Origin: Armatimonadota bacterium
GTDB lineage: Bacteria > Armatimonadota > UBA5829 > DTLH01
Reading direction: 5' to 3'
DNA length: 23,405 nucleotides
NCBI GenBank assembly: GCA_038207085.1
Contig: JBBRAE010000041.1
Span: 1 to 23,405 of the forward strand
Of this stretch, positions 9-18,536 are shown one piece after another; position 1 is the stretch's first letter; every line of letters starts with the position of its first letter. The notes beneath the pieces were generated by a model that had not been told where the DNA came from, did no database searches, and saw nothing but the letters and a program-made list of their open reading frames with translations. A program made the position numbers and the translations under genes.

Positions 9-677
9 TTAGATTCTCTGATCTTCCCTCAGAATAACCCTGCAGCCGCCTTCGTGGCTCTTTGACCAGTCGGTCATCTCGGCGATCTCCGTCAGGCGCT
101 CAAGCTCCCCTATCGACTTCAGGCGGTCGTAGATCAACTGCCAACCGCAGTCGAGACCCGCATCGACTTCGCACTTGCCGTCGCGTGCGCCGCCGCAGGG
201 GCCGTTCAGGAGCTTCTTTGAGCAGCGGGTAACAGGGCAGATGCCGCCGTAATGGCCGACCCGGCACGTGCCGCAGCCGATGCACTTCTCGGTCCAGACG
301 CCCTGGTTCTCAAGTATGCCGATGAACTCGGTGTTGACTCCTGGGAAGACGGGTTTACCTGGAAAGCGCTCGGCTATCGCCTGAACCCCCGCGCCGCAGG
401 CGAGGGAGACGATAGCATCGACGTCCTTTGCCGGGTCGCCGACTTCCTGGATGAACTCGTTCTCGCACTGGCGCTCGATCGTGAACTCGCGCACTTCTTT
501 CTGGTCGCCCGCGATACGAAACGCCATCCGAAGCGCCGACCCAAGCACGCCGACTTCCTTCTCGCCGCCGACCTGACACACTGTAACGCATGTCCCGCAG
601 CCAACGATCAGGATCCTGTTATATCTCTTCAGGTCATCCCTGAGCTCGCTTACACTTTTTCTTGATGCAACAATCAT
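9..677 (-). CDS. metV: MetV, Fe-S/zinc-finger partner subunit of methylene-THF reductase (MTHFR C-terminal domain family)
   Basis: 222 aa. Cys motifs GCGTCVTVCQVGG, RQCE, ACGAG, CIGCGTC, CPVTRCSKKLLNGPCGG and CEV..CGW. ATGA overlap with mvhD. The hdr-mvhD-metV context fits. Confidence 0.85.
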   Translation of the reverse strand: MIVASRKSVSELRDDLKRYNRILIVGCGTCVTVCQVGGEKEVGVLGSALRMAFRIAGDQKEVREFTIERQCENEFIQEVGDPAKDVDAIVSLACGAGVQAIAERFPGKPVFPGVNTEFIGILENQGVWTEKCIGCGTCRVGHYGGICPVTRCSKKLLNGPCGGARDGKCEVDAGLDCGWQLIYDRLKSIGELERLTEIAEMTDWSKSHEGGCRVILREDQRI

Positions 678-1120
678 CTCGTCACCTGTTCCCTATTACC
701 TGATTCCTGTTTGCTACCGAGCGGGTTGGGTCCGATCTTGCGCACCCGCTCCGTCATCTCGGTTACAATCTCCGCAAACCTCGCGCCCATCGCGCTTGAG
801 AGGTTATAAAACTCCACGCGCTCCGGCTCCATACCGGCCTCAAGCATGATCTGTTTGGCAAGGCCGATGCGCTTTTTGGCCCGGAGGTTCCCTTCCTGGA
901 AATGGCAGCCGCCTTCGAGGCATCCTGCGATGATCACGCCGTCCGCGCCGTTTTCAAACGCCCGCAGCACGTAGCCGATGTCCATCTTGCCCGTGCATGG
1001 CAGCCTGAGCACCCGGACGTTGGGCGGATACTGGAGCCTCATCGACCCCGCGAGGTCCGCCGCGGCGTATGCGCAGTAGTTGCAGCAAAGCGCCAGGATT
1101 TTCGGTTCGAAGTTACTCAT
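674..1120 (-). CDS. mvhD: MvhD/FlpD [2Fe-2S] subunit
   Basis: Start re-called to ATG 1120 (MSNFEPKILALCCNYCAYAAADLAG), which overlaps the hdrA stop as ATGA. Motifs PCTG and GCLEGGCHFQEGN. 148 aa. Confidence 0.92.
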   Translation of the reverse strand: MSNFEPKILALCCNYCAYAAADLAGSMRLQYPPNVRVLRLPCTGKMDIGYVLRAFENGADGVIIAGCLEGGCHFQEGNLRAKKRIGLAKQIMLEAGMEPERVEFYNLSSAMGARFAEIVTEMTERVRKIGPNPLGSKQESGNREQVTR

Positions 1121-4100
1121 AGCAGGGACAACTCCTCCATCATCGCATCGATTGCGGCGACGATCTGCAGGTCGGTGAAGTGCTGAAGCTCGATCGCCTT
1201 GCCCGGGCACGCCGAGGCGCAGCTTCCGCAGCCCATACACTTCGCGGCGTCGATTGCCACACGGGTCTTGCCGCCATTGTTGGTCGGGATCGGCGCGCCG
1301 TACGGACACACCTTGACGCATGTCATGCACGACGCGCACTTTCTGACGTCGACCACGCTCACCATACCACCGACGGGAATCGTCTTTCGCGAAAGCACCG
1401 TCGCCGCTCGTCCAGCGGCTGCAAGCGCCTGTGAGAGGTTCTCCGTAAGCGGCTTGGGCGAGTGCGCGAGGCCGCAAAGGAACAACCCTTCGGATGCGAA
1501 ATCCACAGGCCGAAGCTTCATATGCGCCTCAAGGAAGAACCCGTCCATATTGACCGGCACCTTGGCAAGCTCACTCACCGCAAGGTTGTCCCCGGCCGAT
1601 ATGCCCGTCGAAAGCGCGAGCAGATCAACCGAAAGATCGATCTTTCGCCCCGTCGCAGGCTCTGTAAACGTAACAACGAGCTTATCTTTGCCCGAAACGC
1701 GTGGCGCATCGTTCTCATCGTAGCGAATGAATATGACGCCAGCCTCGCGTGCCTTCTGGTAAGCCTCTTCGCGCATCCCGTAGGTGCGCATCTCGCGGTA
1801 AAGGACGACCACTTCGGCGTCCGGGCGCTTCTCTTTGATCGCAAGCGCGTTTTTCACCGCCGCCGAGCAGCACACGCGGCTGCAGAACGGACGCTCCTCG
1901 TTTCGCGAGCCGACGCAGCCAATCATCGCAACCGTCGCGTCTTTCGGCAGCTCAAGCCCACCGGCGAGCTTCTCTTCGAGGTCATACTGAGTCATAACTC
2001 TGGGGTCTTCACCCAGGAGATATTCGTTCGGACGGTGGGCAACGCCGCCCGTTGCGACTATCACAACACCGTGTTCAATAGTGCGGCCGTCCGAAAGCTT
2101 GCTTGCAAAATGGCCGATATGGCCATCGAGCTTAACAACTTCGGTATTCAGATACACCTTGATCCTGGGCATATTTTCGACCGACTCGATCAAACGATTC
2201 TTGAACGACTGAACATCCTCGCCAAAGAGCGTCTCGTGCATCTCGTGGAGCCGCCCGCCGAGCTTGCCGGACTTCTCGACCAGGTGCGTCGTATACCCCT
2301 GGCGCGCAAGAGAAAGCGCCGTAGTCAGTCCCGTCGCCCCGCCGCCGATCACCAGCGCCTCAGGAATGACCTTTTGCTGGTCGGTGGTAAGCGCATAGTT
2401 GTGCGCCGCACGGTTGACGGTCATCTGAACGAGATCAAACGCCTTGGAGGTCGCCGAATGGTGGTCGCCTGAGTGCACCCACGAGCATTGATCCCGGATG
2501 TTCGCCATCTCGACCAAATAGGGGTTCAGCCCACACTCCCGCGCCGTGTCCCTGAAGATCGCCTCGTGCGTTCTAGGCGAGCAGGAGGCGACGACCAGAC
2601 GATTGAGGTCGTGCTCCTTGATAAGCTCTTTGATGCGCTCCTGGCTGTTGTCGGCGCAGGCATAGACGGCCGTCTCGGCATAGAAGACACCCGGAATCTG
2701 GCGCGCGGCCTCGACGACCTTCTCTACATCAACGACTGATGCGATGTTGACGCCGCAGTGGCAGACAAAAAGCCCGACCCTGGGCGGCGCATCTGTGAAA
2801 TCGCGCTCTCGCGGATACTTCTTCTCAGTAACAAGCGTGCCTCGCCCTGGCGCAAGCAATTCCATCACCTGCGCGGCGGCCCCTGATGCCTGTGCAACCG
2901 TCTCGGGGATATCTTTTGGCCCCTGGAAGACGCCCGCGACAAACACGCCTGGTTTGCTAGTTGTGACCGGCTCAAGGCCGTCGGTCTTGCAGAACCCGCA
3001 GGCGTCGACGTCTATCCCGACCGTAGTCCCAAGCCGCTTCATCTCCGCGCTTGGAGTAAACCCAGTCGAGAGAACCACGAGGTCGAACTTCTCCTGCCGC
3101 TTCTCGCCGTCGATGTATGAAATCAAGAGGTCATGAGTCCCCGGCACGTCGATCAAACGCGAAGGCATCGCCCGCACGAACTTGACCCCGGCTGCTTTGG
3201 CGCGCTCGAAGTAGCGGTCAAAGTCTTTGCCGAAGGCTCTGATATCCATATAAAAGATGGTAACTTCAAGGCCCGGCTCATGCTCCATCGCGATGATCGA
3301 CTCTTTGATCGCCGCCATACAGCAGAACGCCGAGCAGTAACCCTTGCCGTTGGTGTGATCACGCGAGCCGACGCACTGGATAAACGCAAGCTTTCTGGGC
3401 GCTTTGCCGTCTGAAAGCCTCTGAATATGCCCGGAGAACGGCCCACTCGCCGAGAGCATCCGCTCAAACTGCACGTTTGTCACGACGTTGGGGTAGCGCC
3501 CGTAGCCAAACTCGCCGCGCACCTTGGCGTCAAACTCGCTCGCGCCCGGCGCAAGGAGCACCGCGCCCACCTCAAGCTCAACGAACACATCCTTCATCGT
3601 GTGATCGATCGCCTTAGGCTGGCAGACCTTGACGCATTCCATGCACTCACAGCAGAGCCCGCACGCAAGACAGCGCGAAGCTTCGGCCTTGGCCTGTTCC
3701 TCGCTGTAGCCCTCGTGAGGCAGGGGGATCTGTTTTTCACGAGGAATCGCGTTTCGTCTGTGCGCAAGCTCAAGCTTCTGGTGCTTCTCGTCGTTCCAAA
3801 GTCTCGGGTCCGCGCTTCTGCCCTCGGCCATGTCTTCGCTTCGGATATATCGGTCGATCGACTCAGCCGCGCGCTTGCCTGCAGCGACAGCTTCAGAAAG
3901 CGTCCCTGCGCCCGCGACGACATCTCCGCCCGCGAAGACTCCGTTTACGTTTGTAGCAAGCGTTACGGGGTCAACGTCTAAGAGGCCCCACTTGTTAAAC
4001 TCAAACTCTATACCGCCGCAGAAGTCCTTAGCAACCTGCTGACCGATCGCCACAAGCGCAGTGTCGCACTCGAGGGTGTGCTCGCTTCCCGCGACCGCCT

Positions 4101-5529
4101 CGGGTCTGCGCCTGCCGCTTGCGTCTTTGTCCTCAGAAAGCGCCATCTTGATAAGCTCCACGCCTGAGAGCTTGCCGTCACGCCCCACAAACCTCTTGGG
4201 GTTCACAAGGAAGCTGAACTTCACGCCTTCTGCTATCGCATCCTCGACCTCGGTCGGGTCAGCGGGCATCTCGCGCTTGGTCCGGCGATAAAGCACGGTC
4301 ACATCAGAGCCGATGCGACGAGCGGCCCGGGCGACATCCATCGCCGCGTTTCCGCCGCCGATCACAACGACCCGCTTGCCAATCTCCACCTTTTGCCCGA
4401 GGTTCACGCGCTTGATAAAATCAAGCCCCTTATCGACGCCCCTCAGCTCCTCCCCCTTGACGCCCATCTCGGTCGCCGCCTGAGCGCCCGCCGCGACAAA
4501 AACCGCGCTGTAGCCCTGGCCCTTGAGGTCAGCGATCGTCATATCGCGCCCTATGGGAGAGTTGGTCTTGATCTCAACGCCAAGCGACTCGATAGCTTTG
4601 ATCTCGCCGTCCATCACGTTGCGGGGCAGCCGAAAGTCCGGGATACCCATCCGCATCATACCGCCCGCAACCGCCATAGCCTCAAGGATCGTGACCCCAT
4701 AGCCGCGCCGAGCAAGGTAGTCAGCAGCTCCAAGCCCCGCAGGCCCCGAGCCGATAATCGCGACCCTCTCGCCTCTGCGCTCGATCTCAGGAGCAGTCTG
4801 AGCGCCCGTGTGCTCGATGACGAATCTCTTCAGCCCTCGCACCGAAAGCGGCTCATCATATCGCCCGCGCTGGCACTCGCTTTCACAGGGCCTGTGGCAG
4901 ACGTAGCTGCAGATCGAGGGCAGCGGGTTGTCCTTGCGGATGATCGCCACAGCCTCGTCAAACTTTCCATTGGCGACGAGCTGGATATAGGCCTGCGCGT
5001 TCTGCCCCATCGGACACGCCGAAACGCACGGAGCGGTGTCGCGCTTGCTGATCGAAAAAACGTTGGGGACAGCCTGAGCATAGGGACGATTGATCGCGCC
5101 CCGGGTATTGAGCCCCTTGTTGAACTCGTTTGGCACCCGCACAGGGCACGCTCGCTCGCAGTCGCCGCAGGCGTTGCACTTGTCCTCGTCGACCAGGCGC
5201 GCTTTTTTGCGCAGGCGAACGGTGAAGTTCCCCGCCTCGCCCGAGACCTCTTCGACCTCGGAGAGCGTCAGAATCTCGATATTCTGGTTGCGCGCGCACT
5301 CCACGAGCTTGGGCGATATGATACACATCGCGCAGTCGCCGGTCGGGAACGTCTTGTCGAGGCTCGCCATCCGCCCGCCGATCGAGGCCGTCGGCTCCAC
5401 AAGGTAGACCTTGAAGCCGGAGTTCGCCATATCTAGCGCGGCCTGAATCCCCGCGATACCACCGCCGCAGACCATCACCGCGCCCGTTGGGCTTATGCTA
5501 ATATTCGGTTGCATAGATTCTTCAATCAT
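1117..5529 (-). CDS. hdrA: Large HdrA-family flavoprotein (HdrL type): two HdrA FAD modules plus an inserted GltD-like NAD(P)H oxidoreductase module
   Basis: First HdrA module: GGGIAG, LDKTFPTGDC, IQCVGSR, YCSAFCC. GltD-like insert: CVSACP, CHRPCESEC, IIGSGPAG, VIGGGNAAMD, LYRR. Then CHCG/CSP/CSWVH. Second HdrA module: GGGATG, CVGSR, CSRVCC. C-terminal 2x[4Fe-4S] ferredoxin. Confidence 0.9.
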   Translation of the reverse strand: MIEESMQPNISISPTGAVMVCGGGIAGIQAALDMANSGFKVYLVEPTASIGGRMASLDKTFPTGDCAMCIISPKLVECARNQNIEILTLSEVEEVSGEAGNFTVRLRKKARLVDEDKCNACGDCERACPVRVPNEFNKGLNTRGAINRPYAQAVPNVFSISKRDTAPCVSACPMGQNAQAYIQLVANGKFDEAVAIIRKDNPLPSICSYVCHRPCESECQRGRYDEPLSVRGLKRFVIEHTGAQTAPEIERRGERVAIIGSGPAGLGAADYLARRGYGVTILEAMAVAGGMMRMGIPDFRLPRNVMDGEIKAIESLGVEIKTNSPIGRDMTIADLKGQGYSAVFVAAGAQAATEMGVKGEELRGVDKGLDFIKRVNLGQKVEIGKRVVVIGGGNAAMDVARAARRIGSDVTVLYRRTKREMPADPTEVEDAIAEGVKFSFLVNPKRFVGRDGKLSGVELIKMALSEDKDASGRRRPEAVAGSEHTLECDTALVAIGQQVAKDFCGGIEFEFNKWGLLDVDPVTLATNVNGVFAGGDVVAGAGTLSEAVAAGKRAAESIDRYIRSEDMAEGRSADPRLWNDEKHQKLELAHRRNAIPREKQIPLPHEGYSEEQAKAEASRCLACGLCCECMECVKVCQPKAIDHTMKDVFVELEVGAVLLAPGASEFDAKVRGEFGYGRYPNVVTNVQFERMLSASGPFSGHIQRLSDGKAPRKLAFIQCVGSRDHTNGKGYCSAFCCMAAIKESIIAMEHEPGLEVTIFYMDIRAFGKDFDRYFERAKAAGVKFVRAMPSRLIDVPGTHDLLISYIDGEKRQEKFDLVVLSTGFTPSAEMKRLGTTVGIDVDACGFCKTDGLEPVTTSKPGVFVAGVFQGPKDIPETVAQASGAAAQVMELLAPGRGTLVTEKKYPRERDFTDAPPRVGLFVCHCGVNIASVVDVEKVVEAARQIPGVFYAETAVYACADNSQERIKELIKEHDLNRLVVASCSPRTHEAIFRDTARECGLNPYLVEMANIRDQCSWVHSGDHHSATSKAFDLVQMTVNRAAHNYALTTDQQKVIPEALVIGGGATGLTTALSLARQGYTTHLVEKSGKLGGRLHEMHETLFGEDVQSFKNRLIESVENMPRIKVYLNTEVVKLDGHIGHFASKLSDGRTIEHGVVIVATGGVAHRPNEYLLGEDPRVMTQYDLEEKLAGGLELPKDATVAMIGCVGSRNEERPFCSRVCCSAAVKNALAIKEKRPDAEVVVLYREMRTYGMREEAYQKAREAGVIFIRYDENDAPRVSGKDKLVVTFTEPATGRKIDLSVDLLALSTGISAGDNLAVSELAKVPVNMDGFFLEAHMKLRPVDFASEGLFLCGLAHSPKPLTENLSQALAAAGRAATVLSRKTIPVGGMVSVVDVRKCASCMTCVKVCPYGAPIPTNNGGKTRVAIDAAKCMGCGSCASACPGKAIELQHFTDLQIVAAIDAMMEELSLL

Positions 5530-5577
5530 ATTCTTTAGTCTCCAAATGGAGTTAGAAAGCGAGAAAAGCTTAATCTC

Positions 5578-5698
5578 GATCGTGTCGTGTCTCCAGACGC
5601 GGCACGCATATTTGAGGAGTCTCCTGACTCCGATCCGTGCGCTGCGGGGTCAGAGACCCTGGGAATATCCGCGCTGGGTCTGGAGACCCAGCGCGATC
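5578..5698. repeat. REP-doublet-like palindromic element bounded by GATC
   Basis: GATC followed by hairpin cgtgtcgtgtc-tcca-gacgcggcacg at the left end. Mirrored hairpin cgcgctgggtc-tgga-gacccagcgcg followed by GATC at the right end. Inner small hairpins ggagtc-tcct-gactcc and gggtc-aga-gaccc. Confidence 0.65.
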
Positions 5699-5705
5699 AA
5701 AAGCA

Positions 5706-6560
5706 TTACTTCATCATCGCAGGCGCAGCCGTAAACAGCCTCCCAAGCCCAAGCGCCGAAGCGTCGAGCCCGAGCGCGTAGCCAATGAGCTGAGTAAAGT
5801 AAAGCACCGGCACGCCAAGCTTGGTGCCGTATTTGGACTCGATATCCTTCTGCCTCATATCCAAGTTCGCCTGGCAGAGTGGACACGCCGCGGCGAGGCA
5901 ATCGGCCCCGGCGGCTTTCGCCATCTCTATGATGTCCCGGCCAAGCTCTTCGACCGCCGACTTGTTGGTGATCGCAAAGCTCCCGCCGCAGCACTCAAGC
6001 GCGTGCGGCCACTCCATCGGCTCCGCTCCAAGAGCAATGAGCAGGTTCTCCATAAGCTTCGGCGACTCAGGGTCGTCAAATATCGAAAGCTCGCGCGGTC
6101 TTGAAAGCAAACACCCGTAATATCCGGCGACTTTGAGCCCGTCGAGACTCCGAACCGCCATACTCTTGATCTCAGCGATGCCGACATCTTCTGTAAGCAC
6201 CTGAAGCAGATGCCGCACCCGCACCTCACCCGCGTAGGGCATTCCGATAATCGCCTCAACCTTGGCGCGCATCTCGGGATCGTTTTTCATCACCATGTTT
6301 GCGTTGGCGAGCCTGCTGTAGCACGCCGCGCAGACCACGACCATATCGCGCCCAAGCTTTGCGGCCTCGGCGAGGTTCTTGGCGGGAAGCGCAACGGAAA
6401 GCGTCGCATCGACCGAGTGCGCCGGGGTCGAGCCGCAGCACGTCCAGCCCGGAAGCTCATCAAGCCTGATGTCGAGCGCTTTGGCTAGAGCCATCGTCGA
6501 CTCGTGGAAGTCCCGCGCCGTCGACTCAAGCGAACACCCGGGGAAGAAGGTGTATCTCAT
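5706..6560 (-). CDS. hdrB: Heterodisulfide reductase-like subunit B (two CCG domains)
   Basis: YTFFPGCSL, WTCCGS, VCAAC, YYGC, ECCGG and ACPLCQ. ATGA overlap with hdrC. Confidence 0.93.
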   Translation of the reverse strand: MRYTFFPGCSLESTARDFHESTMALAKALDIRLDELPGWTCCGSTPAHSVDATLSVALPAKNLAEAAKLGRDMVVVCAACYSRLANANMVMKNDPEMRAKVEAIIGMPYAGEVRVRHLLQVLTEDVGIAEIKSMAVRSLDGLKVAGYYGCLLSRPRELSIFDDPESPKLMENLLIALGAEPMEWPHALECCGGSFAITNKSAVEELGRDIIEMAKAAGADCLAAACPLCQANLDMRQKDIESKYGTKLGVPVLYFTQLIGYALGLDASALGLGRLFTAAPAMMK

Positions 6561-7099
6561 CGTTTCTTCTCCTCGACTTTCTGGAAAATCCGCCGCACAC
6601 CCGCAGAATCGGCGCCCTTGGGAGGCATAAGCTTCATTTTGCCCTTCTGAAACATCGCGCGGCCCTTGTCCATGTCGCTAAAGAAATCGCGCGTCTTAAG
6701 CTTGTAACTGAGCAGCATCAACGGCTCATAGACCCGTCCGTGGCGCTTAACAGAGCCGAGGAACGAGTCGTTAAACGCGCTAGACCTGCTCTCGGCCGAC
6801 TTCTTCTCCCGCGTCGCGATCTCCCGAAGCGCGTCGATCACCTCAGGGGTCTTGACCCCCATCGGGCATCGGCTGACGCATGTCGCGCACGAGGCGCACG
6901 CCCAAACCGTCTTGCTCTTGAGGACCTCCTCGCGCGCGCCGAGCTGGATCATACGGATCAACTGGCTTGGCCGCAGGTCGGTTTCAAAGCTCATCGGGCA
7001 CCCCGCGGAGCACTTGCCGCACTGGTAGCAGGCCGAAACCCTGAGCCGTCCCTGCGGATCGATCTCGGTCACAAACTCCGAAGTGAAAAGCTTACTCAT
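6557..7099 (-). CDS. hdrC: Heterodisulfide reductase-like subunit C (2x[4Fe-4S])
   Basis: CYQCGKCSAGCP and WACASCATCVSRCP. Start at 7099 preferred because GGAGG lies 9 nt upstream; 7108 is the alternative. Confidence 0.92.
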   Translation of the reverse strand: MSKLFTSEFVTEIDPQGRLRVSACYQCGKCSAGCPMSFETDLRPSQLIRMIQLGAREEVLKSKTVWACASCATCVSRCPMGVKTPEVIDALREIATREKKSAESRSSAFNDSFLGSVKRHGRVYEPLMLLSYKLKTRDFFSDMDKGRAMFQKGKMKLMPPKGADSAGVRRIFQKVEEKKR

Positions 7100-9713
7100 C
7101 GCCTTCATCCTCCAACCCCTCAGGGATAGGGCTCGACACAGCCGCCGGCTTCACCGCCGAAACCTTGCGGTAGACATCAAGCGGGCTGCGCTTGATCCCG
7201 TCGACGGTCAACAGATCATCGATCTTCACGCCAAACAGTCGCTCGTTTTCTTCAAGGAACGGCAGGATGACCTTCCAGTCGGCCTCGGTCATATCCGAGA
7301 AGTAGCCGCCGTTCAGCTGATCGAGCGAGAGCGTCTTTCGCGGGTCCCTGGCATAGATCGCGCCGCCCGAGGCAAGAGAGAACAGGTTGCTCCCCGGATA
7401 CGGCGACGCAAGCTCGACGATATTTGCATTGTGGTCGAACTTGACGCCGTTTAGGATAACAAACCCTCCACCCGCCAAGGGGTCCCCGGCCATAAACGAC
7501 TCGGCGAGGAAGTCGAGGCACGTCCCGTTGATAACAACCTTGGGCCGCCCGACGCCGTTGATAAGTGGCCGCCCGGCAGCATTTCCAAGAATCCAGACAT
7601 CTCCGCCCTTCGCGCCATACATAAAGGTCTGCCCGACGTCTCCATAGACCACGAGTTTCCCTTCTTTGGCGACCTGCCCGAGCTGGTCCTGTGCGTTGCC
7701 GTGGACGTAAAGCTCAAGCCCGTCTATGCCTGAGGCCAGATAGTCGCCAGAGCTTCCGTAGGCATCGATTCGCACCCCGTGAGTCCCCGGGCCAAGCCCA
7801 CACCCCAGGAACCTCTGCCCGATATAGCCGTAGCAGATAAAGCGTTTCCAACCCAGGAAGAACCCGTCGGCGACGTAGCGGGAATCGCAGTCGTCCTCGG
7901 GCGGGAACCCGTGGGCGTCTACAACAAGCACCTCTTCAAGCCCCTCAGGAGCACGAAGCTCGCCTCGCGTGTCCCAATCTATCCTGGCAAAGCGCGAAGC
8001 TCCAACCGCCTGAGGCATAAGAGTGACTGAGGCGAATATCTCGTCCAGACTCCGGTCGATAATATCAAGAATCGAGGCCCGCTTTTTCTCACCGGTCGGG
8101 TAATGCCTGTCGCGAAGAAGGGTCAGCGCCTCGATGATGACCGATTTGGCCGCATCCGACTCACCTGCGCGCTTCACAAGCTCGCGCGCCGTCCAGCGAA
8201 CGTCGTTCCAGCTCCAACTCGCAATGCTCGTCCTCACCCAGTCAAACATCAGTCCGGCATCAAACGAGCGAGCGACCTCATCGAGCTTGGCCGCGATATC
8301 ACCAGAGGCAGATGAAATCTCAGCCGTGAGATCAACGTGCTTCTGTCCCGATGGCAGCTTCACATCGCGCCCGAACTTGTCGGTGCAGACCATATCTTTC
8401 TCTTCGCCGCCGGTCAGCGTGAACATAAACGCGCCGCCGTCGGTGTGGCTTCCGCCTCGTGCGTTCCAATAGGTGTCGGCCACTCGGCAGAACCTGGGGT
8501 CTTCGGAGGCGAGGCTGTGGAGCGTCGCGTCGATCGCCTGCTTTTCAGAGCACAGAAAGCCGATCTTCACTTCCTCGTTCTCCATCATAGCAAACACCTG
8601 GGGCCGAAGCATCGCTGTGTCGGTGATGCCAAGCAGCTGATACTCCTGCTTGTCCGGGTTGCTCCGGGCGATGATAAAGAACCAAGGCCCGTCAGGCGAA
8701 GCATGAATGTGCGCGGCCTGCATCTGCCGGTAGACTTCCTGCTTTTCGATCGGCAACATATCAAAGTCCCGCTCGGTCGTCGGGGCGAGGCCTTCGATGA
8801 TATACTCAAGCGGATATTTATATATTCTATTCCAAAGGTCAAAAACGAGCACTGAGACCTCGGTGTCGGTCAGGAACAACGGCTTCACATTTCGCTGCAA
8901 CAGATACTCGCAGACCGAGTAGTAGTTCGCGAAGTCGCCGTTGTGGACCAGGGCCTCGTTCATCCCGCAGAAGGGGTGAGCGCCGCCGGGGTGCCACACG
9001 CGGCCCTTTGTGGGGTAGCGCTGGTGGGCGATCCAGATGTGGGCTTTGAAGTCCTCAAGACCATAGTATTCGACGTTCGCCTCGGCATACCCGACGATCT
9101 TGAAGATCGCCATATCGCGCCCGTGCGAGAGCACAAACGCCTGCTTGTCACCGAGCGCCGCATAGAACTTGGAGTTGAGCTTAAACGAGTTCTGATACAT
9201 AAACTCGTCCTCGATCTCCCGGGCGGGTGCGCCGTCAAGGCCCAGTTCTTTGGTAAACGCCTCAAGAACCGCGGGCTTAACTCGCACAAAGTATCGCCAA
9301 ACGTCCGGCGGCTTCACTTCAAGCCCGATCTCGCGCCAATCCTTGACCGGCTCGACAAAGGTTCGGGAGTGAACGTCAAACACGGGGTCGACGAACTCGG
9401 CTTCGACCGTTTCACGCGCCGCAGGGTCAAGGATCGCGATCTGGAGCAGATAGTGACTGCTCAAAATCTCTCGGGAGACGCCAAGCTGCTCAGGATCAAG
9501 CCCGACGCATGCGATGCCTCCGCCCTTGCCGTTGCCTCTGTTGTGCATCTGCACGCTAGGCTCATAGATGTGTTTTCCGCGCACGGGAACGGTAGACGCA
9601 AACCCCGTAACGCCGCATCCGCCTTCCTCGTCGACGCTCATCATGCCCTTCGGGTCCCAATCGCCGACAAGCCGCATCCGGCTATCAAGTATCTTCTTTG
9701 AAATATCAATCAT
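7092..9713 (-). CDS. Glutamate synthase-related subunit: class II glutamine amidotransferase domain fused to a C-terminal GXGXG beta-helix domain
   Basis: Amidotransferase motifs EEGG-CGVTGF (Ntn Cys33), HNRG, AHQRYPT..AHPF, HNGD and TDTE. C-terminal repeats GQRFLGCG, GSSGDYLASG, GDVGQTFMYGAKGG and GNAAGR. No FMN barrel. Confidence 0.85.
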   Translation of the reverse strand: MIDISKKILDSRMRLVGDWDPKGMMSVDEEGGCGVTGFASTVPVRGKHIYEPSVQMHNRGNGKGGGIACVGLDPEQLGVSREILSSHYLLQIAILDPAARETVEAEFVDPVFDVHSRTFVEPVKDWREIGLEVKPPDVWRYFVRVKPAVLEAFTKELGLDGAPAREIEDEFMYQNSFKLNSKFYAALGDKQAFVLSHGRDMAIFKIVGYAEANVEYYGLEDFKAHIWIAHQRYPTKGRVWHPGGAHPFCGMNEALVHNGDFANYYSVCEYLLQRNVKPLFLTDTEVSVLVFDLWNRIYKYPLEYIIEGLAPTTERDFDMLPIEKQEVYRQMQAAHIHASPDGPWFFIIARSNPDKQEYQLLGITDTAMLRPQVFAMMENEEVKIGFLCSEKQAIDATLHSLASEDPRFCRVADTYWNARGGSHTDGGAFMFTLTGGEEKDMVCTDKFGRDVKLPSGQKHVDLTAEISSASGDIAAKLDEVARSFDAGLMFDWVRTSIASWSWNDVRWTARELVKRAGESDAAKSVIIEALTLLRDRHYPTGEKKRASILDIIDRSLDEIFASVTLMPQAVGASRFARIDWDTRGELRAPEGLEEVLVVDAHGFPPEDDCDSRYVADGFFLGWKRFICYGYIGQRFLGCGLGPGTHGVRIDAYGSSGDYLASGIDGLELYVHGNAQDQLGQVAKEGKLVVYGDVGQTFMYGAKGGDVWILGNAAGRPLINGVGRPKVVINGTCLDFLAESFMAGDPLAGGGFVILNGVKFDHNANIVELASPYPGSNLFSLASGGAIYARDPRKTLSLDQLNGGYFSDMTEADWKVILPFLEENERLFGVKIDDLLTVDGIKRSPLDVYRKVSAVKPAAVSSPIPEGLEDEGDE

Positions 9714-11226
9714 TGGTGTAATCCATATGCCGCAACAGGTCCGTGCGGCCCGAAAGCTCCTTCACGCTCTTTAGGCCCAGCCGAACGAGCAAATCGACCA
9801 GCTGCTCATGCCACGCAAAGTAAAGATTTGTGAGCCTCTGCGTGACCCACTCTATCTGCATCTTGTCCACAAGCTCAAGGTCCGTCGTCGCGATCCCGCG
9901 CGCGCATCCCCTGCCCGACTCGCAACGCCTGCAGCGTATGCACCCCGTCGCGACCATCTCGCTTGTGCCGATCACAACCCCGTCGGCCCCAAGTGCGATC
10001 GCCTTGGCAATATCTGTCGCCGTCCTGATGCCGCCCGAAACGATCAACGTCACGTGCTCCCTGATCCCCTCGTCTTTCAGGAACTGGTCGACCTTGGAGA
10101 TACCATATTCAATCGGCGTCGCGATGTTCTTCTTCGCGATATCCGGGGCAGCGCCCGTCCCGCCGTAGCTTCCGTCGAGGTGCACGATGTGCGCTCCCGC
10201 GTAGAAGCTCCCGACCGCCACCATATCAACGTCCGCCGGGGTCGAAACCTTGGCCGAAACAAGCGCCGTTCGGTTGATGTGCTTGATCCAGTCGATGTGT
10301 TTTTTATGGTCTTCGATCGAATACACGCTATGGAACGGGAACGGCGAGAAGAGCGGCGTCCCCGGAGTCGCTTCGCGCATCGCTGCAACCGACGGTGTGT
10401 TCTTGTCGCCCATCAGGTGGCCGCCAAGCCCCGGTTTCGCGCCCTGCGCGTATTTGAACTCGACGATCCGCGCGCGCATAATCGTCTCTTCTCTTATGCC
10501 GAAAAGCCCCGTCGCAACCTGCGTTATGACGTGGTCTTTATAGGGCACAAGCCGCTCGATATAGCCGCCCTCGCCGGTGTTGGTAAACGAGTTCCACGCC
10601 TTGAACGCCCGGGCGCGCCCGACAATCAGGTGCGGGCTCACCGACCCAAAGCTCATCCCGCCGCCATACCACGGGACATCTATCACCACGCTGGGTCTGT
10701 CATCCCCGCGCCGATTGAGCTCAAGGTGCGTATCGACCTCGCTTGGGTCCACCTTCTCGGGGTTCTCAGGAAATACAAAGTAAAGCTTATCAAACCCGCC
10801 GCCGGAGTTTCCGACCTGGCTTTCAAGGTCGCCTACCGGAGGCTTTCCGGTTTCGGCCATCTGCCATGTCGAGAGAATCAGGTCCGCAGTCCAACGATAG
10901 TCGCCCATCGACTCATACATCGGGTTCAGCTTGACCGAAAGCGCCTTGGCGGGACATGCGTCCACGCAGAAGTTGCCTTCGGCTTTGCAGCGCTCAGCGC
11001 CGATGCACTTATAGTCGATCGGTCTCACGGGGTCGCGATAGCCCTCGGGCCTCGCGTGCACTTCGTACGGGCAGACCGTCTCGCACTTGCCGCAGTTTGT
11101 GCACGCGTTCGAGCGGCTTACCCGCCACTTGCCGATCGCGTTGCGGTATCTGTCCGGGCAGTGTTTTGCCTTTCGCTCGACCTCGGGGTCGATCCCCAGT
11201 TCAACAACTCGTGTGTCAAGAGCCAT
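9706..11226 (-). CDS. Glutamate synthase FMN-binding subunit (GltB domain 2) with N-terminal ferredoxin
   Basis: Start re-called to ATG 11226 (MALDTRV, GGAGG upstream). Motifs CTNCGKCETVCP, GGMSFGS, TGEGG, QVATG, KYAQGAKPGLGGHL, DGSYGGTGAAP, SGGIR, ALGAD and CIRCRRCESGRGC. Confidence 0.9.
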   Translation of the reverse strand: MALDTRVVELGIDPEVERKAKHCPDRYRNAIGKWRVSRSNACTNCGKCETVCPYEVHARPEGYRDPVRPIDYKCIGAERCKAEGNFCVDACPAKALSVKLNPMYESMGDYRWTADLILSTWQMAETGKPPVGDLESQVGNSGGGFDKLYFVFPENPEKVDPSEVDTHLELNRRGDDRPSVVIDVPWYGGGMSFGSVSPHLIVGRARAFKAWNSFTNTGEGGYIERLVPYKDHVITQVATGLFGIREETIMRARIVEFKYAQGAKPGLGGHLMGDKNTPSVAAMREATPGTPLFSPFPFHSVYSIEDHKKHIDWIKHINRTALVSAKVSTPADVDMVAVGSFYAGAHIVHLDGSYGGTGAAPDIAKKNIATPIEYGISKVDQFLKDEGIREHVTLIVSGGIRTATDIAKAIALGADGVVIGTSEMVATGCIRCRRCESGRGCARGIATTDLELVDKMQIEWVTQRLTNLYFAWHEQLVDLLVRLGLKSVKELSGRTDLLRHMDYTND

Positions 11227-12622
11227 TACTACCATCCTCCGAGCGTCGCTTGCCAAACAGCCTGCCGAACGTTTCTCGCTCAAGATCTTCAAAGAACATA
11301 GCCCGGCCCACTTCACCACGAAGCCGCCGAACCTCGCGAATACCCATCGCGCCGAGCACTTCAAGGAGCTGCGAATGCCACGCGCCCATCAAGTTGACGA
11401 TCCGCTGTGTCGCATACTCCGAATCGCGCTCACCAATACCCTCGGGGCAGACGATCCCACGCCGGCACTTGCCGCAAAGCCTGCACTCAAGCGCCACCAT
11501 CAGCGGCAGGTCGATCGCGATCACGTCCGCGCCGCAGATAATAGCCTTCGCCAGGTGCTCCGCGAGTGCAATCCCGCCGCTTGCGATGATCGTAACCTCG
11601 TCGCGGCAGTTGTTTTCGATAAGCCTGAGGTGAACGTCGCGCAAAACGTCTTTGATGTGCCTGGGGTTAGGCCCGTGCTCGCGCCCTTCGGAGTCGCAGG
11701 CGATGTGGATCACCTCCGCGCCCTCTTTGGCAAGCTTGACGGCCCTGCCTGCAGAGTTCGCCCCGGCCTGGACGCGAATCGCGCAGATAACATCGCGGTT
11801 AACCGACTTCGCCCGCGCAATATGCTCAAATACGTCTTCAGAGTCGCTGAACTCGACAATCGTCGAACCCTTAAGCCACTCCTCGGGCATCTCCGCTCCG
11901 TGGAAGAACGGCGCGACCGACGGCATGTGCGCCGCGATCTCAGGGGTCATATTCTGCGGGTCAAAGAGCGCGACCGTCCCAAGCTCGCGGGCGGCGTGAG
12001 CGATCGCCCGGCGGTTGCCAAGCGACGGCTTGTGCCAAGTCATCGTGTCGAAAATCACAGGGATCGGAAGCGTAAGCATCGGCGGCGGCTCAACTGCGAG
12101 GTTCATCCCGCTAAACGCCAGCCTCCCGAGCTTTCGACCGATATCGACCGATGTGCTGATATACTCGCGCCCGTGGATCCCGTCGCGAGTAGGCCGCACG
12201 ATCTCGGACATGTCGGTCCACATCGAGTCAAACCCAGGCCCCGAAAACGGCCCCGGATACCCTGCGCCTGAGACCGGAACCTTGCCTGTCTCGGCCTGGA
12301 ACCAGGTCGTCGCGATGATATCGGGCTTCCAGTAGTCGTTCCCCATACGAACGAACTGCGGGTTGACGCGCCGGGTGAGAAGTCCCTTGGTGCAGCTCTG
12401 CACGCATGAGAGGCAGCTTCGGCAGTCGTAGAGATAATCGACATAGTCCGTGGTCTCACGGATCTCCCGGTCTTCTTTTGCGTAAACGTCAAAGATGCAC
12501 TCGCGCTTGACGCAGTTGCGGCAGGAGGAACAGTCCTCCCGCCAGTCGATGATCCCGTATTTTCCCACCGGCCTCTTGATAGGCGGCGTAGCTTTTACAT
12601 GAACATGATATTTTGCAGGCAT
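11216..12622 (-). CDS. Divergent glutamate synthase FMN-barrel-like paralogue with N-terminal ferredoxin
   Basis: Has CSSCRNCVKREC, CRSCLSCVQSC, GPGFDSMW, ASGGI, AIICGAD and CRLCGKCRRGIVCP. Lacks the GMSxG, TGEGG and QGAKPGxGG motifs. Confidence 0.82.
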   Translation of the reverse strand: MPAKYHVHVKATPPIKRPVGKYGIIDWREDCSSCRNCVKRECIFDVYAKEDREIRETTDYVDYLYDCRSCLSCVQSCTKGLLTRRVNPQFVRMGNDYWKPDIIATTWFQAETGKVPVSGAGYPGPFSGPGFDSMWTDMSEIVRPTRDGIHGREYISTSVDIGRKLGRLAFSGMNLAVEPPPMLTLPIPVIFDTMTWHKPSLGNRRAIAHAARELGTVALFDPQNMTPEIAAHMPSVAPFFHGAEMPEEWLKGSTIVEFSDSEDVFEHIARAKSVNRDVICAIRVQAGANSAGRAVKLAKEGAEVIHIACDSEGREHGPNPRHIKDVLRDVHLRLIENNCRDEVTIIASGGIALAEHLAKAIICGADVIAIDLPLMVALECRLCGKCRRGIVCPEGIGERDSEYATQRIVNLMGAWHSQLLEVLGAMGIREVRRLRGEVGRAMFFEDLERETFGRLFGKRRSEDGSNGS

Positions 12623-12747
12623 TTTATTAGCTCTCAGCTCACACTCTGTCGGTTATTGTTGGTTGTTGGTCGGAGGAATCTGTCCCCCGGCCCCGTTCCG
12701 CGGATTCTATCCGCCAACCCAGTAATCGACTATCGCCAATAAGTGAA

Positions 12748-12880
12748 GATCGTGCGCGATATTTATCGCGCACGCAAAGAACAGCGAGGGAGCTTGGCTC
12801 CCGGTGAATGGGCTATAGTCGACTCACCGGACTTAAGTCCTCATGCTTCTTTGCATTCGGGAGCAATCTCCCGAAGGATC
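12748..12880. repeat. 133-bp GATC-bounded REP-doublet/MITE-like element, copy A
   Basis: Terminal hairpins cgtgcgcgata-tt-tatcgcgcacg and ttcgggag-caat-ctcccgaa, each flanked by GATC and by GCAAAGAA. Its reverse complement matches 14757-14889 at 106/133 positions (ungapped, hand count). Confidence 0.88.
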
Positions 12881-12894
12881 TTCAATGTTCAATA

Positions 12895-12925
12895 TGCTTC
12901 GGGACAGCTTTTTCATCCCGAAGCA
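12895..12925 (-). terminator. Hairpin downstream of the metF-like gene; possible weak terminator or processing site
   Basis: tgcttcggga-N11-tcccgaagca, a 10-bp stem. No real U-tract follows. Confidence 0.3.
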
Positions 12926-12962
12926 CACCTCCCAGCAAGAGACCCAGTCTCCACTTTACACT

Positions 12963-13799
12963 CTAAAGCTTAATTCCAGCCGAATCCAGCACCCGCGCGG
13001 TGCGGCCTTCACCAGCGTCGTAGATATGGATGCCACGCACGCCGTCGATCTTCTGAACGGCCTTTATGACCTCGACCGCATAGTCAAGGCTCACCTTCTC
13101 GACGACCGAATCGGGGATACTGACCCCGCGATACTTCTCACGAGTCTCAAGCGCCTCGTCTTTGCCCTCAATCGGCAGGATTCCGGCGATGATGTGTATC
13201 TTCTTATCAAGCCCGCGCTCGCGAACAAGCTTCATCCACGCCTCGAACTTCTCAAGGTCGAAGACAGGTGAGGTGATAACAAACCTCGCGCCCGAAGCCG
13301 CAACCTTCTCAAGCACGATCACCTGAAGCTCTATGGGGTCCGAAAACGGGTTGGTAGTCGTCCCCGTGACAAGCTCAGTCCCGTGGTTCAAGTTGTGCGC
13401 GAGCCCCAGAAGCTGGATCGGGTCAAGGTCAAAGACCCCCCGAGACGACCGAGTCTTCTCGTCAAGCGACTGATGGTTCCCCGGCGCGCAGATCACGTTG
13501 TTGATCCCAAGCGACGCCGCGCCGACGAGCATGGACTGAAGCGCCGTGCGGTTCATATCCCGGGTAGTAAGCTCAAGCACCGGCTCGATCCCCGCTTTGG
13601 CGAGGTGAACCCCAGCCGCAAGGCCCGACATCCGAGCGCCTTCGCAGTCCGAAACTACCGCCGCGTGGATCTTCCCAGAAAGGCTTTCCGCTGCTCTGGC
13701 AAGCGCGCCTAGGTCAGCGGCTTCCGGCGGAACAATCCCAGCGGTCACAACAAACCCACCGGCTTCAATAACACTTGCTATTTTGGAGGAAATGGACAT
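12963..13799 (-). CDS. MetF-like flavoprotein (methylene-THF reductase family), divergent
   Basis: FVVTAGIVPP, RMSGLAA, EPVLELTTRDMNRTALQS, GVFDLDPIQLL, KVASGARFVITSPVFD, AGILP and GIHI. Several catalytic positions are substituted. Confidence 0.82.
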   Translation of the reverse strand: MSISSKIASVIEAGGFVVTAGIVPPEAADLGALARAAESLSGKIHAAVVSDCEGARMSGLAAGVHLAKAGIEPVLELTTRDMNRTALQSMLVGAASLGINNVICAPGNHQSLDEKTRSSRGVFDLDPIQLLGLAHNLNHGTELVTGTTTNPFSDPIELQVIVLEKVAASGARFVITSPVFDLEKFEAWMKLVRERGLDKKIHIIAGILPIEGKDEALETREKYRGVSIPDSVVEKVSLDYAVEVIKAVQKIDGVRGIHIYDAGEGRTARVLDSAGIKL

Positions 13800-13813
13800 T
13801 TTGGCTCCACCGT

Positions 13814-14242
13814 TTACAATAGATTAAGGGCACTTCGCCCGAGGGATCTGATCTTTGTGAGTGCCTGCTCGATGGATTTCTCCATCGCTTCAGTGCTTGC
13901 TTCGGGTAGGACGATTTCGATGCGGTCGCCGCCGATTCCAATCTCGTCGAGCACGCCTCGCACATAGCCCGAACGCCTCCCGGCCCGGAGGTTTCCTTCG
14001 GCCATCTTGCACTCGCCAGCAGGACAACCGACGATCACCACGCCGTCCGCGCCGCCTTCAAATGCTTTGAAGAGCCGATGGGGGTCAATCTTGCCTGCGC
14101 ACGGGACGATTTCATAGGTCACACCATCGGCTTCGACATAGTCGAGGGCCGCCCCCGATCCCGCACTCTGGCAGGCATAGAGATAAATGCTGGTTCGGGT
14201 GCTTGCGCCGCCATGCCCAACAACATCGCGCTCAGCTTTCAT
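13814..14242 (-). CDS. MvhD-like [2Fe-2S] protein, divergent second copy
   Basis: VPCAGKID, KAFEGGADGVVIVGCPAGECKMAEGNLRA and LDEIGIGGDRI. AGGAGG Shine-Dalgarno at 14251-14256. Confidence 0.85.
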   Translation of the reverse strand: MKAERDVVGHGGASTRTSIYLYACQSAGSGAALDYVEADGVTYEIVPCAGKIDPHRLFKAFEGGADGVVIVGCPAGECKMAEGNLRAGRRSGYVRGVLDEIGIGGDRIEIVLPEASTEAMEKSIEQALTKIRSLGRSALNLL

Positions 14243-14258
14243 AGATTGATCCTCCTAA

Positions 14259-14378
14259 GTAAATGGCGTATTCTGCCATTTACATTCCCATCGTGACGAG
14301 GCCGACAGCAGCGCGCAGTTTGCGCTGTGAAAGGCCTCAGGCACGATTCCCAAGTAAATGGCGCTTTTTGCCATTTAC
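14259..14378. repeat. Two copies of the palindrome GTAAATGGC-N7-GCCATTTAC enclosing a nested hairpin
   Basis: Copies at 14259-14283 and 14354-14378. Between them: cgtg..gaggcc..cagcgc / gcgctg..ggcctc..cacg. Confidence 0.8.
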
Positions 14379-14394
14379 GTTCACGTAAAAACAC

Positions 14395-14436
14395 AAAAAA
14401 GGCGCTTTCCACCGAACTGATTCGATGGAAAGCGCC
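14395..14436 (-). terminator. Intrinsic terminator (attenuator) in the operon leader
   Basis: mRNA reads GGCGCUUUCCAUCGAA-UCAG-UUCGGUGGAAAGCGCC-UUUUUU: a 16-bp stem with one G-U pair, then U6. It lies between the promoter and the first gene. Confidence 0.88.
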
Positions 14437-14504
14437 TCAATAGCAGACGTGTCAACAGGCGCTTCGCCACGAACCATAACAGTTCGGAGCTGACGCCTTC
14501 GTCA
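14412..14504 (-). promoter_or_regulatory. Putative antiterminator / RNA switch
   Basis: The mRNA segment from 14487-14457 is complementary to the terminator 5' arm and loop (14437-14412). An upstream hairpin UGAC-GAAGGC-GUCA lies at 14491-14504. Confidence 0.6.
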
Positions 14505-14622
14505 TTGAACCAAGAACATACCCGGTTCTGCCGCAGGACCCACACTGGCCGCTGCGACACAAAATCTGAATACTACCCTGTACTCATCAGCCAACGACTA
14601 TTCAGCCGCCAGCCTCTTTAGC

Positions 14623-14651
14623 AATATAACTCTACAGCGCTATATTGTCAA
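14623..14651 (-). promoter_or_regulatory. Sigma70-type promoter for the redox cluster
   Basis: TTGACA-N17-TATATT on the minus strand. Confidence 0.75.
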
Positions 14652-14756
14652 TGGGAAACAAGCCTGAAACACCGAAATAGTGTAACTATCGCTTATTCTT
14701 GACGCAATCAATCTGTAACAGTGCAGCTACCGTCCACGTGTTCCACTGCCTGCCAC

Positions 14757-14889
14757 GATCGTTCGGGAGATTGCTCCCGAACGCAAAGAACATTGAGGAC
14801 TTTAGTCCGGGGCATCGACTATAGCCGACAGAGCGGTAGCTAAGCTCCCTCGTTTTCTGTTTCGCACGCTATAAATATCGCTCGCGATC
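14757..14889. repeat. 133-bp GATC-bounded element, copy B (inverted relative to copy A), overlapping the peptidase 3' end
   Basis: About 80% identical to the reverse complement of 12748-12880. Perfect hairpin cgttcgggag-attg-ctcccgaacg. Confidence 0.88.
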
Positions 14890-17793: not shown

Positions 17794-17868
17794 CCCGCAC
17801 TATTCACGAACCCCGTGAATAATGCTCTCTTAGCAAGAGCTTTATTCGCTTCACGAATAAAGCGGGCT
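17791..17868 (+). repeat. 78-bp triple-hairpin repeat, copy 1
   Basis: 66/78 identical (hand count) to 18426-18503. Begins at the dxs TAA. Confidence 0.88.
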
Positions 17869-17984
17869 AACGGCTTCGATGCTTCAGTGCCGCCTCCAAC
17901 GCGAACCACTGTTGGATTCCAGTCGTCGGTATGGTAAAATACTTAAGTAAATCGACCGGATGACTATGAGGCTCGCCAACTATT

Positions 17985-18503: not shown

Positions 18504-18536
18504 CACCGTCGAGAATAGCGCGGTGGGTAGTCATGT

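Follow-up and report, generated by a model that had tools for sequence, protein, structure and literature searches.

A probable split glutamate synthase gene trio joined to a putative HdrL-MvhD-MetV electron input module in an Armatimonadota bacterium and its relatives

The NADPH-dependent glutamate synthase (GltS, also called GOGAT) of bacteria consists of GltB and a free GltD subunit, and the split "archaeal-type" enzyme has the GltB domains encoded by separate genes, with a flavin mononucleotide (FMN) subunit that carries an N-terminal ferredoxin domain. The three proteins of N-methylglutamate synthase, MgsABC, are homologues of the GltB amidotransferase, FMN and GXGXG domains; their genes cluster with gmaS and mgdABCD, and the reaction has no net electron input. 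The input module of split GltS is exchangeable: in the F420-dependent enzyme an FrhB-like "subunit 4" is presented as the input subunit (passages of PMC3087415), and in anaerobic methanotrophic archaea (ANME) FrhB10 clusters with GltS subunits (passages of PMC9012536), which sets a precedent for an input of the heterodisulfide reductase (Hdr) type. Moorella thermoacetica has a MetFV-HdrCBA-MvhD gene cluster for a methylenetetrahydrofolate reductase (PMC6085437, PMC9012536, in the passages that deal with it), whose HdrA is composed of two fused HdrA modules (PMC9012536). HdrA proteins with a GltD- or NfnB-like insert are represented by HdrL of Desulfobacterium autotrophicum, in which a large insertion lies at the inserted-ferredoxin domain and mvhD comes next (PMC2702500), by the "type III" HdrA (PMC12054007) and by HdrA9-11 of ANME-1 (PMC9012536); in those passages they adjoin dsr, mvhADG, fdh-like or other hdr genes, and no link to a glutamate synthase is made. 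Here we describe a locus that combines these elements, found in a 23,405-nt stretch of DNA from an Armatimonadota bacterium (GenBank assembly GCA_038207085.1, contig JBBRAE010000041.1), hereafter the window. The explanation that we favour, with a probability of roughly 0.55, is that it encodes one multi-subunit split "archaeal"-type GOGAT that would receive its electrons from an Hdr-type redox machine and not from free GltD or ferredoxin.

Ten consecutive genes of the minus strand, between nucleotides 14242 and 9, are mvhD2, metF-like, gltX3, gltFMN, gatGXG, hdrC, hdrB, hdrL, mvhD and metV (Table 1). Their products share with the bacterial NADPH-GltS (2vdc, 6s6s) a synthase domain, with 185 bits to GltB, and a GltD-like module, with 205 bits, but the latter is inserted in HdrA instead of being a free subunit, a four-Cys motif stands in place of the three-Cys 3Fe-4S motif of GltB, and the order of the domains is permuted. 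The separate genes for GltB domains and the N-terminal ferredoxin domain of the FMN subunit are as in the split archaeal-type GltS, and the same trio is found in three ANME-1 loci (L030, L036, L060); the window differs from that enzyme in that a putative glutaminase and GXGXG are fused in an 873-aa protein, a second, degenerate FMN-like protein, GltX3, probably replaces the central domain, and the input neighbours are MvhD, MetV, a MetF-like protein and HdrCB-HdrL and not FrhB. The order hdrC-hdrB-hdrA-mvhD-metV and an HdrA with two modules recall the Moorella cluster. Unlike that cluster, the operon contains three GltS genes in addition, its HdrA has an NfnB/GltD-type insertion, and no metF follows metV, the sole MetF-like gene being located 13 kb upstream and lacking the conserved Asp and Gln. 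From MgsABC the locus is set apart by its context, which includes glnA, amt, P-II and carAB and not gmaS/mgd, and by iron-sulfur (Fe-S) wiring that implies a net reduction. The parts themselves are of known kinds, and what is new is a split GltS with an HdrL/MvhD/MetV input module. No description of GltS genes clustered with MvhD, MetVF or Hdr was found in the mainly open literature, including the relevant passages of PMC8097209, PMC7117923, PMC7282089 and PMC5947623, although a prior mention in subscription journals or supplements is possible.

Gene families were assigned by Pfam and NCBIfam scans of 18 proteins of the window; the other open reading frames (ORFs) of at least 140 aa lie on the opposite strand, overlapping the scanned genes, and were outside these scans. 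Stop and start codons overlap from gltX3 to hdrB and again from hdrL to metV. As read at the junctions, gltX3 and gltFMN overlap at 11216-11226 (stop TGA 11218-11216, ATG at 11226), the gltFMN stop overlaps the ATG of gatGXG at 9706-9713, and gatGXG and hdrC share 8 nt (stop TAA 7094-7092, ATG 7099). The hdrC start at 7099 has GGAGG 9 nt upstream, and an ATG at 7108 is an alternative start. The tetranucleotide ATGA is common to hdrC and hdrB (6557-6560), to hdrL and mvhD (1117-1120) and to mvhD and metV (674-677). All the overlaps on which the original prediction of an Hdr-coupled glutamate synthase had drawn, that is, the run of the GltB-like trio into hdrC-hdrB and the ATGA joints of hdrA-mvhD-metV, were found again in both the ORF coordinates and the junction sequences. 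The operon has two gaps, one of 176 nt between hdrB and hdrL and another of 340 nt between metF-like and gltX3. For comparison, a GatGXG profile gave at least 596 confirmed places in species-representative genomes, of which the best 80, mostly metagenome-assembled genomes (MAGs), were analysed; these 80 loci are ranked by similarity, so that all counts taken from them are biased toward window-like clusters.

The trio GltX3, GltFMN and GatGXG is very probably a real glutamate synthase, judging from its domains, its conserved residues and its neighbours. GltFMN aligns to the solved synthase domain of the Azospirillum brasilense GltS alpha subunit (2vdc_A, residues 855-1170) and keeps the AQGAKPG-GG loop that serves 2-oxoglutarate and FMN. 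Beside the FMN, where GltB has the [3Fe-4S] motif C-x5-C-x4-C, GltFMN reads C-x2-C-x2-C-x5-C, and these four Cys probably bind a [4Fe-4S] cluster, a variant rather than a loss. GltX3 is a paralogue of GltFMN (28% identity across the full length) with eight invariant N-terminal Cys and one C-terminal Cys set in the alignment of its members, and the two proteins together have seven or more Fe-S motifs. An AlphaFold2 (AF2) model of GltX3, with a predicted local distance difference test score (pLDDT) of 75, is a TIM barrel; Foldseek ranked the GltS alpha chain 6s6s_A first (E 5.5e-9) and FMN hydroxy-acid oxidases next, and from the ESM Atlas only "glutamate synthase-related" clusters came back. 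GltX3 and GltFMN form a single ORF in three of the related loci (L031, L058, L063), and at least 630 database clusters, about 970-1070 aa long, are likewise fusions of the two; both Glu_syn_central (PF04898) and Glu_synthase were found in 115 of 120 such fusions among the matches listed, and 15 of 22 GltX3 members gave Glu_syn_central matches below threshold. With Glu_syn_central in the fusions and a GltS-like TIM barrel in its own model, GltX3 is probably the equivalent of the central domain. A further Glu_synthase-like protein of about 543 aa, family c16, occurs in four loci (L003, L032, L065, L066; e.g. L032:1282-2913), near glnA and upstream of the mvhD-trio cluster. It has a Pfam match in its C-terminal half only and no NCBIfam match, and may be another GltX3-like paralogue.

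GatGXG belongs to a family of at least 7665 homologue clusters, with 61-76% identity across phyla among the matches listed. Its motifs EGGC33GV, IAHQRYPT and HNGDFANY, of the PurF/GlmS type, are invariant in 18 sequences, and we take them to be the signature of an N-terminal nucleophile (Ntn) amidotransferase, in which case a propeptide of about 32 residues must come off before Cys33. The GXGXG domain (PF01493) scores 43 bits, above its cut-off of 32.5, and GATase_6 scores 22.7 bits, below its cut-off of 27. A profile search of PDB with GatGXG found no amidotransferase, and the GXGXG part was nearest to FwdC (5t5i_C). The AF2 model, built on 18 close sequences, has a mean pLDDT of 64 and a glutaminase core below 50; its sole significant Foldseek match, GltS 7mfm_G (E 3e-4), comes from this low-confidence model and is a weak pointer. 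The surroundings of the trio are those of nitrogen assimilation, since the 80 related loci include glnA (11), carA (12), carB (10), purF (8), amt (7), P-II (5), NrpR (3) and gdh (3), the neighbouring glnA encoding a type I glutamine synthetase (560 bits against a cut-off of 429). These glnA, amt, P-II, NrpR, carAB and purF neighbours support a conversion of glutamine and 2-oxoglutarate to two glutamate as the probable activity of the trio.

On the input side, HdrL aligns to HdrA of the Methanothermococcus/Methanothermobacter type (5odc_A, from M. wolfeii) with 604 bits in four collinear-permuted stretches (Table 1), and the HdrA domain set is present: a thioredoxin-reductase-like flavin adenine dinucleotide (FAD) domain, the N-terminal cluster, and the inserted and C-terminal ferredoxin domains. 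At residues ~163-625, HdrL has an insertion that separates HdrA positions 290 and 293 and amounts to a complete GltD/NfnB-like NAD(P)H-FAD-2x[4Fe-4S] module (PRK12771, 521 bits, residues 159-652; TIGR01316, 353 bits; NfnA 9n5u, 394 bits; GltD 2vdc_G, 205 bits), and this insert is kept in all 16 Hdr-type relatives. In its architecture the protein agrees with HdrL of Desulfobacterium autotrophicum, with the type III HdrA and the NfnB-inserted HdrA9-11, and with the two-module HdrA of Moorella. The original prediction had pointed out that no stand-alone gltD was present, which is correct for the 18 scanned proteins but misleading, as a GltD-like module sits inside HdrA (residues ~160-650). As the second dinucleotide motif of HdrL, the window shares GGGNAAMD...YRR with six relatives, and the other relatives have ...ACLE...; the GXGXXA/GXGXXG rule for dinucleotide preference, as quoted in a passage of PMC12054007, suggests NADPH as the nucleotide in the window. 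Of the other components of the flavin-based bifurcating HdrABC-MvhD complexes, the window encodes an HdrB that has a pair of CCG domains, an HdrC with two [4Fe-4S], and MvhD. The four Cys of MvhD2 are invariant in 22 orthologues, and an MvhD-like ORF was found upstream of the trio 51 times among the 80 loci. HdrCB is not obligatory for the module, because two window-type clusters of Acidobacteriota (L011, L013) have hdrL directly after GatGXG without hdrC and hdrB.

Synteny was counted by tblastn of the ten window proteins against the 80 loci. Four ORF families (c9, c12, c17, c30) were rejected as antisense shadow ORFs produced by longest-ORF calling in GC-rich loci and were not used for the counts. 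GltX3 and GltFMN lie upstream of GatGXG in 58 of the 59 loci with at least 3.3 kb upstream; in the 59th (L047) tblastn found GltFMN, and ORF analysis found GltX3 too. Among 61 loci with 2.5 kb or more of downstream sequence, 16 have the Hdr genes immediately after GatGXG in the window gene order; these relatives belong to Chloroflexota, Planctomycetota, Myxococcota, Acidobacteriota and Armatimonadota. Another three loci (L007, L020, L026), which are shorter, break off inside hdrCB or hdrL. Loci were considered fully informative if they extended at least 5.8 kb upstream and 7.7 kb downstream, which 42 did. Beside the trio, 17 of these 42 have Hdr, MvhD, MetV and MetF (16 of the window type, and L040 with a plain HdrA upstream), 13 have MvhD, MetV and MetF, three have MvhD only, two have MetV and MetF, another two have MvhD and MetV, and five have the trio only, so that an MvhD-like gene accompanies it in 35 loci and metV in 34. 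Gene orders vary by lineage (mvhD-metV-metF-trio; mvhD-trio-metV-metF, or type C, with the trio between mvhD and metVF; mvhD-trio), and the MvhD-MetVF-GltS module occurs in at least 10 phylum-level groups. The most widely conserved neighbours of the trio are therefore MvhD with or without MetVF, and Hdr is a lineage-restricted addition. The linkage expected by the original prediction does recur in relatives of five phyla, although in many lineages MvhD and MetVF adjoin the trio in the absence of Hdr.

A FastTree phylogeny of GatGXG was made with 73 of the 80 rows, those outside 780-1000 aa being left out. Fifteen Hdr-type rows fall in one starred clade of 20 rows, together with four trio-only Chloroflexia and one unclassified row; this clade covers Chloroflexota, Planctomycetota, Myxococcota and Acidobacteriota. 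Another starred clade contains the window together with L001 (Armatimonadota) and L002. When the Hdr-type loci are compared, HdrL and GatGXG give FastTree phylogenies with the same groups, which would follow from inheritance or transfer of the operon as one block. One locus from an Anaeromyxobacter sp. MAG labelled Myxococcota (L028) groups with Acidobacteriota/Bryobacteraceae in both trees, which reflects either a transfer of the whole operon or a mis-binned contig.

The same data bear on a doubtful alternative in which the operon would encode two co-regulated but separate enzymes, a ferredoxin-dependent split GltS and an Hdr/MvhD/MetV(F) complex of other function. The trio standing alone or with MvhD only at some loci, and the two spacers of the window, agree with such a division, but the 8-nt overlap between gatGXG and hdrC does not, nor does the location of MetF-like/MvhD2 and MetV/MvhD at opposite ends of the operon, around the glt and hdr genes. 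The conservation of this order over five phyla, the congruence of the HdrL and GatGXG trees and the fact that MvhD is known only as an adaptor to HdrA-type proteins (passages of PMC2702500 and general knowledge) also argue against it. Fusion proteins that would join the two sets were searched for, with results that are weak evidence in favour of separate enzymes: the MvhD-like profile gave only five matches in longer proteins, none with GltS parts (HdrA-type proteins, a ferredoxin-domain protein and one other fusion), and the 120 listed matches of the GltX3 profile were GltX3-GltFMN fusions only, none with FlpD, MTHFR or DUF5981.

The MetF-like protein and MetV deserve separate consideration. 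The MetF columns were mapped by a profile of 20 cluster MetF proteins onto human methylenetetrahydrofolate reductase (MTHFR), the motif "GD" being ALRGD and "TQ" being TQ. The window protein has Asn108 for the conserved Asp of MTHFR and Ser177 for the conserved Gln, and it has Gly21 at the putative position of the catalytic Glu. In clusters without Hdr the MetF Asp and the MetF Gln are each present in 23 of 24 sequences. Of the 18 sequences from Hdr-type clusters, by contrast, only 8 retain the Asp and 11 the Gln, a sign that selection for folate chemistry has been relaxed precisely in the clusters that have Hdr. MetV is 54-64% identical in the Hdr-type relatives. All window-type loci have the MetF-like gene at the operon head and metV at the tail. 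Neither the 8 nt that remain in the window after metV nor the 16 Hdr-type relatives show a metF behind it, and in the relatives metV is followed by no conserved gene. We infer that in Hdr-type loci the MetF-like protein has ceased to act as a methylene-tetrahydrofolate (methylene-THF) reductase and has been retained as a partner of MetV with a structural or electron-transfer role; in the window, this partner is encoded at the operon head. In the non-Hdr cluster types, a functional MTHFR may be part of the complex.

An unlikely reading of these genes is that of a dual-output anabolic reductase, in which the Hdr/MvhD input would feed both a glutamate synthase and a MetVF methylene-THF reductase that provides methyl-THF for methionine or C1 metabolism; this is close to the original prediction, which had proposed MetV(F) as a second output. 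The order shared with the Moorella cluster (PMC6085437 and PMC9012536, in their relevant passages), the Glu, Asp and Gln of MetF in 23 of 24 sequences from non-Hdr clusters, and MetVF directly beside the trio in 13+2 of the 42 informative loci are what this reading would lead one to find. A methylene-THF output is nevertheless improbable in the window, because its sole MetF-like protein has lost the conserved Asp and Gln, with Gly, Asn and Ser at the three positions; the relaxed selection in Hdr-type clusters and the missing second metF after metV, in the window and in the 16 relatives, point in the same direction. That the trio catalyses a related reaction, such as an amine exchange like that of N-methylglutamate synthase (an alternative raised from the outset) or another reductive amination tied to C1/folate metabolism through the MetF-like protein, is very improbable, since in spite of the divergent glutaminase, the resemblance of the GXGXG part to FwdC and the folate-enzyme homologue in the cluster, the neighbours are those of nitrogen assimilation, no gmaS/mgd-type genes are among the annotated families common to at least three loci, the GltS substrate loop is kept, and the many Fe-S clusters imply a net electron input that N-methylglutamate synthase does not need.

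If the operon does encode a GOGAT with an Hdr-type input, GatGXG would hydrolyse glutamine at the Ntn Cys exposed after removal of the propeptide, and the ammonia would pass to GltFMN, where 2-iminoglutarate formed from 2-oxoglutarate would be reduced at the FMN. GltX3 and the N-terminal ferredoxin domains would constitute the wire to the FMN. NAD(P)H would be oxidised at the GltD/NfnB-like module within HdrL, and electrons would go from the flavins and clusters of HdrL to the two MvhD [2Fe-2S] adaptors and MetV, from there to the clusters of GltX3 and GltFMN, and finally to the synthase FMN. The catalytically decayed MetF-like protein would accompany MetV, and HdrCB could be a second electron branch. 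The standard potential of NAD(P)H is about -320 mV and that of 2-oxoglutarate plus NH4+/glutamate is roughly -0.1 to -0.15 V, and glutamine hydrolysis adds driving force to the GOGAT reaction. With NAD(P)H this reaction is strongly exergonic, and therefore the complex may bifurcate, co-reducing ferredoxin or a disulfide. A more tentative extension is that the exergonic GOGAT reaction drives flavin-based bifurcation, in which electrons from NAD(P)H at HdrL might follow one path through MvhD, MetV, the MetF-like protein and GltX3 to the FMN and another to ferredoxin or an HdrBC disulfide; MetV and the dead MetF would then be adaptors, and MvhD-MetVF-GltS a possible new class of GltS. Of the NAD(P)H-fed Hdr hub proposed originally for both glutamate synthase and MetV(F), an NAD(P)H entry point, a tightly joined trio and a recurring gene order were found, and the MetV(F) output is the part that is unlikely. 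Conserved synteny and the logic of the domains lend support to the central idea of that prediction, a glutamate synthase coupled to Hdr.

Besides the similarity ranking of the loci, several observations weigh against the reading that we favour. The Asp and Gln of MetF in 23 of 24 sequences outside the Hdr-type clusters fit a real MTHFR that shares the operon and not a pure adaptor. The 176- and 340-nt spacers, one of them with a hairpin, could divide the operon into separate transcripts. The trio exists without adjacent partners in five of 42 loci, and four of these are nested in the Hdr-type clade. The fusion searches, themselves weak evidence, turned up no protein in which MvhD, MetV or Hdr is joined to part of GltS. 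Finally, the glutaminase domain stays below the Pfam cut-off and its core is poorly modelled by AF2.

Table 1. Genes, HdrL segments and noncoding features of the window.
Feature	Position	Strand	Remarks
MvhD2, MvhD-like [2Fe-2S] adaptor	13814..14242	-	142 aa; Pfam FlpD 75 bits
Degenerate MetF/MTHFR-like TIM-barrel protein	12963..13799	-	278 aa; Pfam MTHFR 69 bits
GltX3, N-terminal 2x[4Fe-4S] and degenerate GltS TIM barrel	11216..12622	-	468 aa; Fer4; Glu_synthase 63 bits, C-terminal half only
GltFMN, FMN/synthase subunit, N-terminal 2x[4Fe-4S]	9706..11226	-	506 aa; Pfam Glu_synthase 309 bits
GatGXG, putative class-II (Ntn) glutaminase, helical linker and GXGXG beta-helix	7092..9713	-	873 aa; GXGXG 43 bits
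HdrC, 2x[4Fe-4S]	6557..7099	-	TIGR03290 79 bits; Fer4_8
HdrB, two CCG domains	5706..6560	-	Pfam CCG, two stretches, 85 bits; TIGR03288 199 bits
HdrL, giant HdrA	1117..5529	-	1470 aa; two HdrA-type modules and GltD/NfnB-like insert
HdrL segment	residues 10-162		HdrA 138-290
HdrL segment	residues 626-838		HdrA 293-509
HdrL segment	residues 915-1041		HdrA 3-129 (N-terminal domain)
HdrL segment	residues 1324-1465		HdrA 510-651 (C-terminal ferredoxin domain)
MvhD, canonical	674..1120	-	Pfam FlpD 165 bits
MetV, iron-sulfur/zinc partner of MetF; last gene of the operon	9..677	-	Pfam DUF5981 (MTHFR C-terminal) 118 bits
Candidate sigma-70-like promoter TTGACA-17-TATATT, upstream of the operon	14623..14651	-	11/12 consensus match only
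Candidate structured leader or small RNA	14390..14620	-	ends in 18-bp terminator-like hairpin (14438-14399) and T-run
Two perfect palindromes AAATGGC-N7-GCCATTT	14261-14281, 14356-14376		between terminator-like hairpin and first start codon
136-nt repeat element in the metF-like/gltX3 gap	12745..12880		inverted copy 14757-14892, 79% complementary
Perfect GC-rich hairpin in the 176-nt hdrB-hdrL spacer	5669..5694		no T-run after hairpin

The region upstream of the operon contains seven promoter-like sites, compared with a mean of 4.0 in shuffles. The leader, of about 220 nt, folds into six hairpins with a free energy of -104.4 kcal/mol (z = -7.0), a value that none of 200 shuffles equalled, and the stretch 14390-14651 could be a small RNA or an attenuator leader. 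Rfam gave no match in the whole window at gathering thresholds, nor in 12600-14850 at E<=1, and no similarity to the leader was found in the loci of the 80 relatives. The two copies of the palindrome are 95 bp apart, and the second one lies right against the ribosome-binding site of the gene that opens the operon. A search for it with up to two mismatches gave three matches, two of them perfect, a number not reached in any of 100 shuffles; the exact pattern is absent from the loci of the 80 relatives. The palindromes are probably operator sites for a regulator.

The two 136-nt inverted repeats flank the mvhD2 and metF-like genes and the leader, and seem to be copies of an intergenic repeat specific to this genome. 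The one ahead of gltX3 accounts for the 340-nt gap at that place; the relatives have no comparable gap. Such repeats at both sides raised the possibility that the mvhD2/metF-like pair was a recent insertion, which was rejected because relatives that lack these repeats also have both genes ahead of gltX3. Intergenic repeats of a second family, 82-nt direct repeats (17790-17871 and 18425-18506, 84% identical, each internally palindromic), flank a gene for an Rrf2-family regulator (17985-18428). Elsewhere in the window, a small RRM-domain RNA-binding protein with a long Gly/Arg/Ser-rich tail is encoded at 18603-19097 on the minus strand, its listed ORF start being probably too far upstream, and an IS66-family transposase ORF of 282 aa, probably truncated (21967-22815, minus strand), sits between 25-nt inverted repeats (21840-21864 and 23204-23228; span 21840-23228).

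The electron donor of split archaeal-type GltS is largely unknown, and this cluster offers MvhD, MetV and Hdr as candidates, together with an entry site for NAD(P)H. The family concerned is large, with at least 7665 GatGXG protein clusters and at least 596 species-level genome matches. The results suggest that some MetF/MetV pairs annotated as MTHFR of the Wood-Ljungdahl or methionine pathway belong to a GltS module, which would affect metabolic reconstructions in Chloroflexota, Acidobacteriota, Desulfobacterota, Planctomycetota and other groups. If the proposed coupling is true, a central anabolic reaction would join the short list of Hdr-type complexes, and energy-limited anaerobes could recover energy from ammonium assimilation by regenerating low-potential reductant.

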